64,000 bases of DNA from an uncultured Chloroflexia bacterium (GCA_963727055.1 CAVSEN010000003.1:85810-149809), one strand, 5' to 3'; positions 11,757-16,436 are shown, counted from the stretch's first letter. Numbers and translations: made by a program. The notes: generated by a model from the sequence alone, not told the origin.

Positions 11757-12772
11757 TCAGCTGACCGGCGCGCTCCACGATCGGATCGTGTCCATGTAGT
11801 TGGCCCGCTCGAAGGCCGCCGGGTTCTCGGCGGTCGCCTGGCTCGCGCTGCCCCGGAGCTGGCTGACCGACTCGTACTCGTGGGCGGCCAGCCAGGCCCG
11901 CAGCTCGGCCTCGACCGTGGCGACGTGGCCGGGGCCCTGGCGCAGGATCGCCGAGGTCATCATCACCACGTCGGCGCCGACCATCAGGCCCTTGACCACG
12001 TCCGGCGCGGCCTGGGCGCCGCTGCTCGCGGCGAGCGAGACGGTGTCACCCAGCTGGGGCCGCAGGATCGCGATCCAGCGCACGGGCAGGCGGAGCTCCC
12101 AGGCATGGCTCAGCTCGAGTCGGGGGACGACCTCGAGCGCCTCGAGATCGAGGTCCGGCTGGTAGAAGCGGTTGAACAGGACGAGCCCGTCGGCGCCCGC
12201 ATCGATCGTCGCCGCGGCGAAGTGGGCGAGGGCCGAGTAGATACGGGCTGAGCTTGACCGCCAGGGGGATCGTGACGGCCGCCCGGACGGCGGCGATCAG
12301 GTCGAGGTCGGCCGCCTCCATGTCGGCCGCGGTCCGGCGCGGATCGGCCGCGACGCGGTACAGGTTGAGCTCGAGGGCATCGGCGCCGGCATCCTGCATG
12401 AGCCGGGCATAGCGGACCCAGCCCCCGACGCTCGTCGCGTTGAGGCTGGCGATGACCGGCACGCCGGCCTGCGCCCGAATCTGCTCGAGCGAGCGCAGGT
12501 AGCGGTCGGCGGCGCCGATGAACTCGTGGACGGCGGGGAAGTAGTCGAGCGCCTCGGCGAAGTGCTCGGTGCCCTGCTCGAGGGCCCGGTTCAGCTCGAT
12601 CTCCTCGCCCAGGATCTCCTCTTCGAAGAGCGAGGGCAGGACGATCGCGCCGATCCCGGCGCCCTCCAGGCGCCGGGTGTGGAGCGGATCGCTGTTGAGC
12701 GGCGAGGCCGAGGCGACGATCGGCGAGCGAAGCTGGAGGCCGAGGTAGCGAGTCTGGAGGTCGACGCTCATG
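11757..12772 (-). pseudogene. Dihydroorotate-dehydrogenase-like protein (PyrD/PreA family, class 1 DHOD-like) with one frameshift near 12243
   Basis: MSVDLQTRYLGLQLRSPIVASASPLN... runs to ...AVKLSPY, then the frame shifts (+1) into (Y)SALAHFAAATIDAGADGLVLFNRFYQPDLDLE...RWIAILRPQLGDTVSLAASSG...ERANYMD. Its ATG overlaps the PFOR stop (ATGA). Confidence 0.7.
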
Positions 12773-15700
12773 CCGGGTCCGCCTCTCCGTCGTAGCGATA
12801 GCCGGCGTCGCTCTCGACCTCGGGCAGGATCGCCGGGTCGGGCCGGTGGATGTGGGGCACGGTCCGCTCGATGCCGGCCAGCTGCTCGTAGTAGCGCCAG
12901 CGCTCGTCGGCGTCGGCCTGGGCCAGCAGGGCCAGCTCGGCGGCGCGCTCCGGGTGGGTGCGCTTGAGGACCGCGAAGCGGGTCTCGGTGGCGACGAACG
13001 CCGCGACCGGGATCGAGGGCGTCGCCGAGTCGAGCTTGAACGGCTTGCCGCCGTCGATCTCGGACGGGTGGAAGCGGTACAGCGGCCAGTAGCCGCTCTT
13101 GACCGCGTCCTTCTGGTGGGACATCGACTTGCGACATGTCGATGCCGTGGGCGATGCAGGTGCTGTAGGCGATGACCAGCGACGGCCCCGGCCAGGCATC
13201 GGCCTCGAGCAGCGCCTTGGTCGTCTGCTGGTCGTTGGCGCCCATCGAGATCTGGGCGACGTAGACGTTGCCGTAGGACCGGGCGATCGCGCCCAGGTCC
13301 TTCTTGGCCGTGGCCTTGCCGGCCGCCGCGAACTTGGCCACCGCACCGCGCGGGGTCGACTTCGAGGCCTGGCCGCCGGTGTTCGAGTAGACCTCGGTGT
13401 CGAGGACCAGGATGTTGACGTTGCGGCCCGAGGACAGGACCTGGTCGACTCCGCCGAAGCCGATGTCGTAGGCCCAGCCGTCGCCGCCGATGATCCAGAC
13501 CCCCTTGCGGACGAGGTCGTCGGCCAGGGCCAGCAGGTGGCGGGCATCCGCCGCGCCGGCCCCGTCGATCCGGCCGAGCGCCGCGCGCAGGCTGGTGACC
13601 CGGCCCCGCTGGAGATCGATCTCGGCTTCGGTCTCCTGGCTGGCGTCGAGCAGCCCGGCCACCAGCTCGGCGCCGAGCTCGGGCGCGAGGCGGCCGACGA
13701 GCCGGCGGGCCTGGTCGGTCTGGGCGTCGAGGGCGAGGCGCATCCCGAGGCCGAACTCGGCGTTGTCCTCGAACAGCGAGTTGGTCCAGGCCGGGCCGCG
13801 GCCGGCCGCGTTGACCGTCCAGGGCGTCGTCGGCAGGTTGGCGCCGTAGATCGACGAGCAGCCGGTCGCGTTGGCCACGATCATCCGGTCGCCGAAGAGC
13901 TGGCTGACGAGCTTGAGGTAGGGCGTCTCGCCGCAGCCGCCGCAGGCGCCCGAGAACTCGAACAGCGGCTCGAGGACCTGGGTGCCCTTGACCGTGTCGT
14001 GGGCGAGCAGGCTCGCGGTCGAGCGAGCGGGATCGACTGGAAGAAGTCCCAGCGCGGCCGCTCGACGTCGCGGTGCTCCAGCGACCGGCTCCATGTTGAT
14101 CGCCTTGTGGCTCGTGTCGGTCTTGCTCTTGGCCGGGCAGACGTCGACGCACACGCCGCAGCCGGTGCAGTCGTCGGGCGCGACCTGGATCGTCAGGCGA
14201 TGGTCGGGCAGGTCCCGCGAGCGGAACTCCTTGTGCAGGAAGCCGGCCGGGCGCCGCGTCGACCGCGGCGTTCGGGAAGACCTTCATCCGGATCGTGGCG
14301 TGCGGGCAGACGATGGCGCACTTGCCGCAGTCGATGCAGATCGTCGGGATCCCAGATCGGGATCTCCTGGGCGATCGCCCGCTTCTCGTACTTGGTCGTC
14401 CCGGTCGGGAACGTGCCGTCGACGGGCAGGGCGCTGACCGGCAGCAGGTCGCCGTCGCCGGCCATCAGCCGGCGCGGTGACCGGCGCCACGAAGTCGGGG
14501 ACGCCATCCGAGGATCTCGGCCGGCCGGTCGGTGCTCACGCTGGCGGCCGGCCGAGCGAGACGTGGCTCGAGCCGCTCGAGCGATCGGTCGATCGCCGCG
14601 AAGTTGCGCTGCGACGATCGCGTCGCCGCGCTTGGCGTAGGTCTTCTCGACGAAGCCCTTGATCCGGCTGATCGCCTCGTCGGCGGGCAGCACGCCGGCC
14701 AGCTGGAAGAAGCAGGGCTGCATGACCGTGTTGATCCGGCTGCCCATGCCGACCTCGGCGGCGACGGCCAGGGCGTCGATGACCCAGAAGTCGATCTCCT
14801 TGTCGATGAGCTGGCGCTGGACGTCGCCGGGCAGGTGCTCCCAGACCTCGTCCGGCCCGTACGGGGCGTTGAGCAGGAACGTCGCGCCGGGCTTGGCGTA
14901 CTCGAGGACGTCGATCTTGGCCGAGCAGCCCGAACTGGTGGCAGGCCACGAAGTCGGCGTCGTCGACGAGGTAGGTCGAGCGGATCGGCTCGGGGCCGAA
15001 GCGCAGGTGCGAGACGGTGATCGAGCCGGACTTCTTCGAGTCGTACACGAAGTAGCCCTGGGCGTACAGGTCGGTGCTCTCGCCGATGATCTTGACCGAG
15101 GCCTTGTTGGCGCCGACCGTGCCGTCGGAGCCGAGGCCGAAGAAGACCGCCTGGACCTCGCCGGCCGGCCGCGGCGTGCCGGAAGTCGGTGTCGATCGGC
15201 AGGCTGAGGTGGGTCACGTCGTCGTAGATGCCGACCGTGAAGTGGCGCTTCGGCCGGTCGGCGGCGAGCTCGTCGAAGATCGGCTTGATCATCGACGGCG
15301 TCATCTCCTTGGACGACAGGCCGTAGCGGCCGCCGATCACCCGTGGCGACCGTCGCGAAGGGCGGCTCGGCCCGATCCATCGCCTCGGCCAGCGCCGGCG
15401 ACGACCTCCAGGTAGAGCGGCTCGCCGACCGCGCCCGGCTCCTTGGTCCGGTCGAGGACGGCGATCGCCCGGACCGTGGCCGGCAGGGCGGCAATGATCT
15501 GCTCGGCCGGGAACGGCTGGAACAGGCGGATCCGGAGCAGCCCGACGCGCTCGCCGGCGGCAACCAGGGTGTCGACCGTCTCCTCGACCGCCCCGGTGGC
15601 CGAGCCCATCACGACGATCACCCGGTCGGCGTCCGGCGCGCCGTGGTAGTCGACCAGGCCGTACTGCCGGCCGGTCCGCGCGGCGAGCTCGTCCATGACC

Positions 15701-16436
15701 TCCTGGACGATCCCGGGCACCGCCAGGTGGTACGGGTTCGACGCCTCGCGGGCCTGGAAGAAGACGTCGGGGTTCTGGGCCGTGCCGCGCACGACCGGCG
15801 CGTCCGGGGTCATGCCCCGGCTGCGGAAGGCAAGGACATCCTCGTCGCGGACCAGCGCCCGGATGTCGTCGTCGCTCGAGGACCGCGATCTTGTCGATCT
15901 CGTGCGAGGTCCGGAAGCCGTCGAAGAAGTGCAGGAACGGCACCCGCGCCCGGAGCGTCGCCGCGTGGGCGACGAGGGCGAAGTCGTGCGCCTCCTGGAC
16001 CGAGCCGGCGGCGAGCATCGCCCAGCCGGTCGTGCGGGCGTGCATCACGTCGCTGTGGTCGCCGAAGATCGACAGGGCGTGGGTCGCGATCGTCCGGGCG
16101 GCGACATGGATCACGGCCGGCGTCAGCTCGCCGGCGATCTTGAACATGTTGGGGATCATCAGCAGGAGGCCCTGCGACGCGGTGAAGGTCGTGCGCCAGG
16201 GCGCCCTTCTGGAGGGCGCCGTGGAGGGCCCCGGCGGCGCCGGCCTCGGACTGCATCTCGACGACGTCGGGGACCTTGCCCCACAGGTTCGGCCGGCCGG
16301 CCGCCGCCCAGTCGTCGCAGTGCTCGGCCATCGGCGACGCCGGCGTGATCGGGTAGATCGAGATGACTTCGCTGACGGCGTAGGCGATTCGGGCCGCGGC
16401 CTCATTGCCGTCCAGGCACTCGTACCGCTCGCTCAC
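12768..16436 (-). pseudogene. nifJ: Pyruvate:ferredoxin (flavodoxin) oxidoreductase (PFOR, NifJ/Por type), interrupted by at least 12 frameshifts
   Basis: All PFOR domains are recognisable in order. The N-terminus is [19 protein letters not shown]...ITPASPM...[21 protein letters not shown], with a GTG start at 16436 and a GGAGG RBS. Further along come [74 protein letters not shown], two 4Fe-4S Cys clusters (CIDCGKCAIVCP and CTGCGVCVDVCP), EFSGACGGCGETPY, and the TPP motif GGDGWAYDIGFGG. The reading frame changes near 16195, 15875, 15393, 15343, 15168, 14935, 14610, 14508, 14468, 14348, 14245 and 13128. Confidence 0.85.

Follow-up and report, generated by a model that had tools for sequence, protein, structure and literature searches.

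Single-base indels in a pyruvate:ferredoxin oxidoreductase gene and six other genes of a Limnocylindrales metagenome contig are probably consensus errors that may record collapsed haplotypes

Introduction

Do the many frameshifts that interrupt a small group of otherwise well-preserved genes in an uncultured Chloroflexia bacterium belong to the organism, or only to its assembled sequence? The stretch of DNA that raises this question (GCA_963727055.1 CAVSEN010000003.1:85810-149809; 64,000 nucleotides, hereafter the window) carries on its minus strand a gene for a nifJ-type pyruvate:ferredoxin/flavodoxin oxidoreductase (PFOR; 12768-16436, with the stop codon at 12768-12770), in which the reading frame has to be switched again and again to follow the conserved protein. 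A preliminary description, made from the sequence, reported at least 24 frameshifts concentrated in seven genes, at least 12 of them in PFOR, and left two kinds of explanation side by side: recent or phase-variable inactivation, and localised assembly or consensus errors. We have followed up this description by homology-free frame detection, by alignment to intact relatives and by tests of where the additional bases fall within codons. The evidence favours the second alternative. We propose that the frameshifts are probably consensus errors of a long-read metagenome assembly, in which two haplotypes may have been collapsed and both alleles of single-nucleotide polymorphisms (SNPs) written in tandem.

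Results

Frameshifts are concentrated in seven genes

The G+C content of the window is 72%, and because of this composition long open reading frames (ORFs) occur in every frame and lists of ORFs are uninformative. The coding frame was followed with a six-state hidden Markov model (HMM), which uses positional G+C (third positions, GC3, ~0.95; second positions, GC2, ~0.5) together with in-frame stops and is independent of homology. The model switched frame at 2124, 12241, 13129, 14240, 14349, 14469, 14611, 14917, 15160, 15392, 15874 and 16185 and, further along the window, at 26232, 34927, 37662, 37968, 38413, 38506, 39143, 39442, 40953 and 41057. For almost all positions given in the preliminary description, the model has a switch only a few bases away; at three sites in the second of two paralogous metallohydrolase genes (paralog B, described below), it is further off, by up to 87 nt.

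Taken together, the frame model and frameshift-aware alignments give a total of ~32 single-base indels across seven genes. The remaining coding segments of the window, checked segment by segment, all terminate at an in-frame stop, and seven of the ~55 genes of the window are disrupted beside intact neighbours. The claim that the frameshifts are concentrated in seven genes while the rest are intact is thus borne out by the frame model, the alignments and the stop check, and the phenomenon is larger than had been stated.

All PFOR indels are single-base insertions

The raw PFOR coding sequence comprises 3666 nt, which is 1216 codons and 18 extra bases. A custom frameshift-aware protein-to-DNA aligner, run against five intact PFORs of 1216 aa, returned 15 one-base surpluses and no missing base, and the picture was the same against each of the five. 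Independently, when the gene was aligned at the DNA level with the two nearest orthologues that could be retrieved (on contigs L081 and L082, 86% identity), 15 single-base insertions and no deletion were found. With three further positions in a linker, the PFOR indels amount to 15 certain and three probable events, every one of them a single-base insertion. The earlier figure of at least 12 was right in that the frameshifts are many and was an undercount.

Along the minus strand, and with the removable base in brackets, insertions recovered by both the aligner and the nucleotide alignment lie at 16193 (GCG[C], a synonymous third-position doublet), 15396-15398 (GCC[G]), 15347-15350 (GTC[G]), 15175 (CAC[G]), 14609-14612 (GTC[G] or GCA[G]), 14568-14569 (CTC[G]), 14472 (GCG[C]), 14251 (GCG[C]), 14079 (GCT[G]) and 13131 (TCG[C]). 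Two more were located by nucleotide and frameshift-aware alignment at 14026-14030 and at 14011-14015 (CGC[G] or GA[G]C). At two sites the orthologues themselves carry both alternatives: the insertion at 15874 (GAG[C]) is a third-position doublet between E and D codons, for which they have gag and gac, and at 14348 (GAT[C]) they have gat and gac. The insertion at 14919-14920 (GGC[C]) is the sole clustered event that can be read only as the extension of a run. Near 13131 the preliminary description had seen a 13-nt quasi-duplication (~13128); this is native sequence (MSKSMSHQK, found in the orthologues too), and the lesion there is one extra C.

The three probable insertions fall in a poorly conserved, variable linker of PFOR (14570-14472). 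Two lie at 14546-14550 (GGC[C] GGC[C]), where an alignment with a lower frameshift penalty also shifts, and the third at 14509 (CTC[G]), which is the switch previously placed at ~14508. If the linker is read uncorrected, its three extra bases add one codon and create a TGA at 14538; dropping the C at 14550, the C at 14546 and the G at 14509 brings the conserved 'LGG' back, removes the TGA and leaves the linker free of gaps. The earlier statement that the correct frame contains no in-frame stops therefore holds if these three bases are three +1 events; otherwise, the TGA at 14538 stands against it.

After removal of the 18 bases, PFOR becomes an ORF with no internal stop and with 1216 codons, the modal length in the PFOR family. 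The corrected protein scores 1749 bits against TIGR02176 (cut-off 911), covers profile positions 3-1166 of 1167, and contains two CxxCxxCxxxCP ferredoxin motifs and the GDG thiamine-diphosphate motif (CIDCGKCAIVCP, CTGCGVCVDVCP, GGDGWAYDIGFGG). From the profile and the motifs, the gene is predicted to encode a single-chain NifJ-type pyruvate:ferredoxin oxidoreductase.

A dihydroorotate dehydrogenase-like (DHOD-like) gene (11757-12771, minus strand; NF005741, 413 bits) follows PFOR and contains one +1 event, TAT[C] at 12240. The first 4 nt of this gene overlap the end of PFOR. Both the pair and the 4-nt overlap occur also in two related contigs of metagenome-assembled genomes (MAGs), at 10001-14661 of L081 and 5547-10255 of L082, and this recurrence suggests that PFOR and the DHOD-like gene form a conserved, translationally coupled two-gene unit in the lineage. 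A coding-type composition signal is absent from four stretches of 340-700 nt each in the window, namely 16450-16980, which is directly upstream of PFOR, 28463-29163, 7357-7715 and 24687-25028.

Direction, clustering and codon placement of the events

By frame arithmetic, an earlier tally had put the +1 events at 23 of 26 (two-sided P ~9e-5). In the final count, +1 events make up at least 26 of the ~29 coding events, with 18 in PFOR, seven in paralog B and one each in the DHOD-like gene, a glycoside hydrolase (GH) gene and paralog A; events of the -1 kind are confined to a DegT aminotransferase gene (one) and a TIM-barrel gene (two). The single G/C losses pointed out in the preliminary description are present at 34931-34932 in DegT and at the two TIM-barrel sites, whereas most events are gains.

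The distribution along the window is far from even. Sixteen events lie inside one 4-kb span, for which 20,000 simulated trials gave a maximum of 11, and the last 22.9 kb of the window is free of events (P ~3e-6). The events may be divided into a clustered class of ~26, which occupies one block at 12.2-16.2 kb (PFOR and the DHOD-like gene) and another at 37.1-39.7 kb (paralog B), and a scattered class of five singles (GH, paralog A, DegT and two in the TIM-barrel gene), which would be one-base length errors in G/C runs of 1-4.

For 22 clustered events, the position of the removable base was compared with the restored frame; the control was a simulation in which 4000 insertions were placed at random in the corrected genes. 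Nineteen of the 22 read as a codon followed by an extra base that is unlike its third base, with the alternative codon synonymous, as in GCG[C], GCC[G], GAT[C], CTC[G] and TAT[C]; the simulation gave 45-54% (P 1.4e-3 to 9e-5). Only one of the 22 is readable solely as a homopolymer extension, against 31-39% in the simulation (P 3e-3 to 3e-4). Homopolymer slippage, or homopolymer error of the Nanopore type, was considered as the source of the clusters and is ruled out by the sequence contexts and by this placement test.

The identity of the doublets is also biased. C/G pairs account for 16 of 21 and transitions for two of 21, whereas natural third-position differences to relatives are C/G in 43-64% and transitions in 25-47%; transitions are depleted among the doublets. 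The contexts of the sites are diverse (GCGC, GAGC, GCCG, GTCG, CACG, GATC, GCTG, TCGC, TATC and others), and their inspection revealed no common motif and no methylation motif at the insertion sites. No repeat tracts occur at the event sites, and the runs at the scattered events are just 1-4 bases long. The preference for synonymous third positions points to strain polymorphism, and not to frameshift mutation or random read error. This insertion-only signature at third codon positions goes beyond what the preliminary description contained.

Corrected PFOR shows no sign of decay

Among 120 intact PFOR homologues, 526 alignment columns are invariant. The corrected PFOR of the window differs at two of them, both of which sit in the ambiguous spot 14030-14014, and intact members of the family differ at 0-13 of the 526 (median 0). 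GC3 of the corrected gene is 0.98. Substitutions outnumber indels several-fold in bacteria, and if they do so here, the 15-18 indels would be expected to come with tens of substitutions, ~20-40 of them at invariant residues.

Comparison with orthologues, which the preliminary description had proposed, could be made at some distance: the closest relatives, L081 and L082 (86% nucleotide identity) and, for paralog B, L083 (90%), are intact and lack the extra bases, while a genome of the same species is absent from the databases. The protein database, which includes JGI proteins, holds no PFOR of >89% identity. As a baseline, 82 other PFOR loci were taken from a scan of a genome collection, with at most 79% identity among the matches listed. 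No internal frameshift is clear in these loci, Mb-scale MAG contigs included; a -1 and a -2 shift stand close together in one locus, L036, and the other apparent frameshifts of the baseline lie at the 3' tail past the stop, as the aligner forces the whole reference into the alignment.

Paralog B and an intact independent copy

The second block of events lies in paralog B (37101-39715, plus strand), a putative metallohydrolase gene of the CehA/McbA family (NF038032, matched on its relative P0241). P0241, recovered by protein search, is an intact 865-aa relative encoded on contig L083, which comes from another sample, is named k141_257042 in the style of a short-read assembler and has 90% nucleotide identity to the window; it provides an independent copy in which the gene is uninterrupted. 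In the nucleotide alignment of the paralog B region to L083, the two sequences differ in length at eight sites only; at each of these the window has one base more, and there is no deletion.

Seven of the eight are coding +1 insertions, at 37608, 38059-38062, 38417, 38501-38502, 39136, 39440 and 39691. The eighth is an extra G (GGG to GGGG) at 37089 (plus strand), in non-coding DNA upstream of the paralog B start. This G could be natural variation between relatives that are 90% identical; should it be an error, errors of this kind are not restricted to coding sequence. The six shifts previously listed for paralog B are all present, and the coding event at 39691 and the upstream G at 37089 had been missed.

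Provenance of the window

An intact protein of the window (43560-45704, minus strand) is 100% identical to P0121, which forms a single-member cluster and lies on one NCBI/ENA contig of 2,117,741 bp. The next relatives of P0121 reach at most 73% identity, and the named ones are proteins of Candidatus Limnocylindrales or Chloroflexota MAGs. This protein match places the window on a 2.1-Mb Candidatus Limnocylindrales MAG contig, and a contig of 2.1 Mb from an uncultured soil or freshwater lineage argues for a long-read assembly. No same-species copy of P0121 was found in the protein database mentioned above. The protein itself has 714 aa, lacks a precomputed Pfam domain and has >2000 homologues (E <= 1e-30) of similar length, the named ones from Limnocylindrales or Chloroflexota MAGs, and may be described as an uncharacterised protein conserved in this lineage.

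Other disrupted genes

Paralog A (25029-27445, plus strand), also of the CehA/McbA family, has one +1 event at 26236 (CGC[C], C to CC). A possible compensating +1/+2 pair at 25702/25745 was not counted, as it falls in a low-complexity stretch rich in proline and arginine, for which the only reference, paralog B, is 57% identical. Paralogs A and B, of ~800-865 aa, lie 10 kb apart and share 57% amino acid identity. The idea that they are near-identical repeats that were missed by polishing is ruled out by this low identity. The N-terminal ~470 residues match no Pfam family, and there are >300 homologues of similar length, of which the named ones come from Chloroflexota or Limnocylindrales metagenomes.

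The apiosidase-like GH gene (1628-2924, minus strand) has one +1 event at ~2126-2127 (GAC[C]TAC, C to CC). The DegT/DnrJ/EryC1 aminotransferase gene (33819-35062, minus strand) has lost one base at 34931-34932 (GGG to GG), and the restored 'HRDLEGE' aligns without gaps to 'TRDMEQL' of PDB 5k8b. The xylose-isomerase-like TIM-barrel gene (40557-41480, minus strand) has two -1 events in short G/C runs, at ~41055-41058 and ~40951-40956; across 40953, putting back a single base is enough for an alignment without gaps, and the event at 41057 is deduced from frame arithmetic only. A tRNA scan detected no tRNA in the 64-kb window, and an Rfam scan detected no Rfam family.

Discussion

Where the events lie, their direction, codon placement and clustering, the absence of substitution damage and the Mb scale of the contig are direct observations. 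With these in view, we assign a probability of roughly 0.7 to the explanation that the frameshifts arose as errors in the consensus of a long-read metagenome assembly, in which two haplotypes collapsed and SNP alleles were written in tandem; of the alternatives named in the preliminary description, it is the localised assembly or consensus error that the evidence favours. In both 2.6-4-kb blocks, the assembler or polisher would have merged reads of two slightly different haplotypes. The source of the second haplotype may be a recombined tract that differs between co-existing strains, or it may be reads recruited from a related population, drawn in by the conserved genes; PFOR retains 86% DNA identity even to other genera-level relatives. 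At some SNPs, both alleles would then have been written consecutively, for example GCG and GCC as GCGC (an 'allele doublet'), and the additional base would shift the frame. As strains differ mainly at synonymous third positions, the extra base would be expected after the third position and unlike it. Published work bears on the general points only: long-read assemblies carry frameshifting indels (PMC9262707), and with Flye, strains that are 97.6-98.7% identical end up in one consensus (PMC8302730).

A possible route to such tandem doublets, which is our own reasoning, is a maximum-likelihood polisher that assumes a single template. A two-base template would cost each of the two read groups one deletion, and it would win if the squared deletion probability is greater than the miscall probability; this is likelier for the rare G<->C miscalls than for transitions. 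The deficit of transitions among the doublets may thus reflect that G<->C miscalls are rarer than transition miscalls. We infer both the haplotype mixture and this behaviour of the polisher from the assembled sequence. The scattered events fit the ordinary background of long-read consensus errors, ~1 per 10 kb, and a few of the five could equally be real slippage mutations.

Several points weigh against this explanation. Published long-read consensus errors are described mostly as homopolymer indels (PMC9262707), and we found no description of tandem allele doublets in the literature. In formal terms, every single insertion admits a doublet reading, and the support for the doublets is purely statistical (P ~1e-3). 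The explanation also offers no reason for mixing to be restricted to just two blocks, and other long-read MAG loci of the PFOR family are free of such errors.

The same locus can be explained without a second haplotype if the blocks are patches of very low coverage or lacking polishing, bridged by one or a few reads or skipped by short-read polishing, into which an insertion-prone platform placed random insertions. The 2.6-4-kb span of the clusters is close to the length of one read, the Mb-scale contig implies long reads, frameshifting indels are known in such assemblies (PMC9262707), and the short-run errors scattered over the rest of the window reveal an imperfect consensus. However, random insertions should use all codon slots and should often stand beside an identical base, whereas 19 of the 22 tested are doublets and one is homopolymer-only; deletions and miscalls would be expected as well, whereas PFOR has no deletion and 0-2 changes at the 526 invariant residues. 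We therefore consider generic noise of this kind unlikely. Genuine pseudogenes, with PFOR, paralog B and the five other genes inactivated and decaying and the extra bases fixed as mutations, appear very unlikely. The frameshifts are, after all, present in the deposited sequence; they hit seven of ~55 genes amid intact neighbours; three -1 and two +1 events in short G/C runs resemble ordinary slippage; and no second same-species assembly in the databases contradicts them, the P0121 cluster having one member. With substitutions outnumbering indels several-fold, however, decay would predict ~20-40 changes at invariant PFOR residues, where 0-2 are seen, and the corrected gene has no stops, an unchanged GC3 and exactly 1216 codons. 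Natural single-base indels in bacteria are mostly deletions and mostly fall in homopolymer runs, whereas the events here are insertions, most of them with a non-run reading, and once a gene is dead, selection cannot account for insertions that prefer to follow a codon's third base.

Two further possibilities take the extra bases at face value and keep the genes functional or switchable. Programmed +1 sites or four-base codons, or phase-variable tracts that toggle the genes, would be in keeping with the near-uniform +1 sign and with encoded proteins that are otherwise perfect. The sites, however, have no motif in common, nor a slippery sequence or a shared stop-codon context, one of the extra bases (37089) is non-coding, no tRNA was found in the window, and the relatives encode the same proteins in ordinary frames; to our knowledge, there is no precedent for 18 frameshift sites in one bacterial gene. 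As to phase variation, there are no repeat tracts, and 21 of the 22 clustered events have a non-run reading. Together with the near-uniform +1 direction and the lack of a substitution load in PFOR, this speaks against the recent or phase-variable inactivation considered in the preliminary description, and we regard functional recoding or switching as barely credible. Only slightly more room, and still very little, is left for the extra bases being real and present in every cell of the Limnocylindrales bacterium: the 18 sites of PFOR and the seven of the metallohydrolase would be read through an unknown high-efficiency +1 decoding or correction, or an unknown mutational process would have produced insertions without substitutions.

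Considering that haplotype collapse with tandem alleles is the explanation we favour, the frameshifts are, as biology, most likely not a real feature, and the PFOR/DHOD-like operon, the second CehA/McbA metallohydrolase and the GH, DegT and TIM-barrel genes are most likely all intact in the organism. Automated annotation would report seven fragmented or 'pseudo' genes on this contig, and the warning that annotation of the locus would be fragmented was correct. A metabolic reconstruction could wrongly deny the Limnocylindrales population pyruvate:ferredoxin oxidoreductase, and the pseudogene count of the MAG would be inflated. The signature described here (insertion-only, a differing base after the third position, mostly C/G, in blocks of a few kb) could serve as a screen that needs no reads; it could pick out, in long-read MAGs, the stretches where haplotypes were collapsed and separate them from real pseudogenes. 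If the explanation is true, tandem doublets would be a footprint that exposes hidden strain polymorphism, perhaps recombination tracts, in finished long-read assemblies.

Several known systems resemble this locus in part. Multi-site translational frameshifting in mitochondrial genes with many +1 sites also combines many +1 events in one conserved gene with a protein that is otherwise intact, but here there is no site motif, the gene is bacterial and chromosomal, the relatives lack the extra bases, and one event is non-coding. Pseudogenes of reductive evolution, of the Mycobacterium leprae type, likewise affect some genes with multiple frameshifts each and leave their neighbours intact; they differ from the present case, which has no substitutions of invariant residues, no stops, an insertion bias and an exact codon count. 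Closer to our explanation is the strain-collapsed consensus described in the Strainberry work (PMC8302730). What was reported there is a mosaic consensus with lost variants, whereas tandem alleles are suggested by this window; the likeness is that related haplotypes are merged into a sequence that corresponds to no real molecule, and that the scale of the blocks is that of local strain differences. Finally, the consensus indels of Nanopore and PacBio long-read assemblies (PMC9262707; proovframe, 10.1101/2021.08.23.457338) are usually errors in homopolymer length along the contig, whereas the clustered events here are insertion-only, mostly open to a non-run reading, placed after third positions and gathered in two blocks. 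Single-base indels in otherwise perfect ORFs on a Mb-scale metagenomic contig are nevertheless common to both, and the scattered singles, in short G/C runs, agree with how such errors are classically described.

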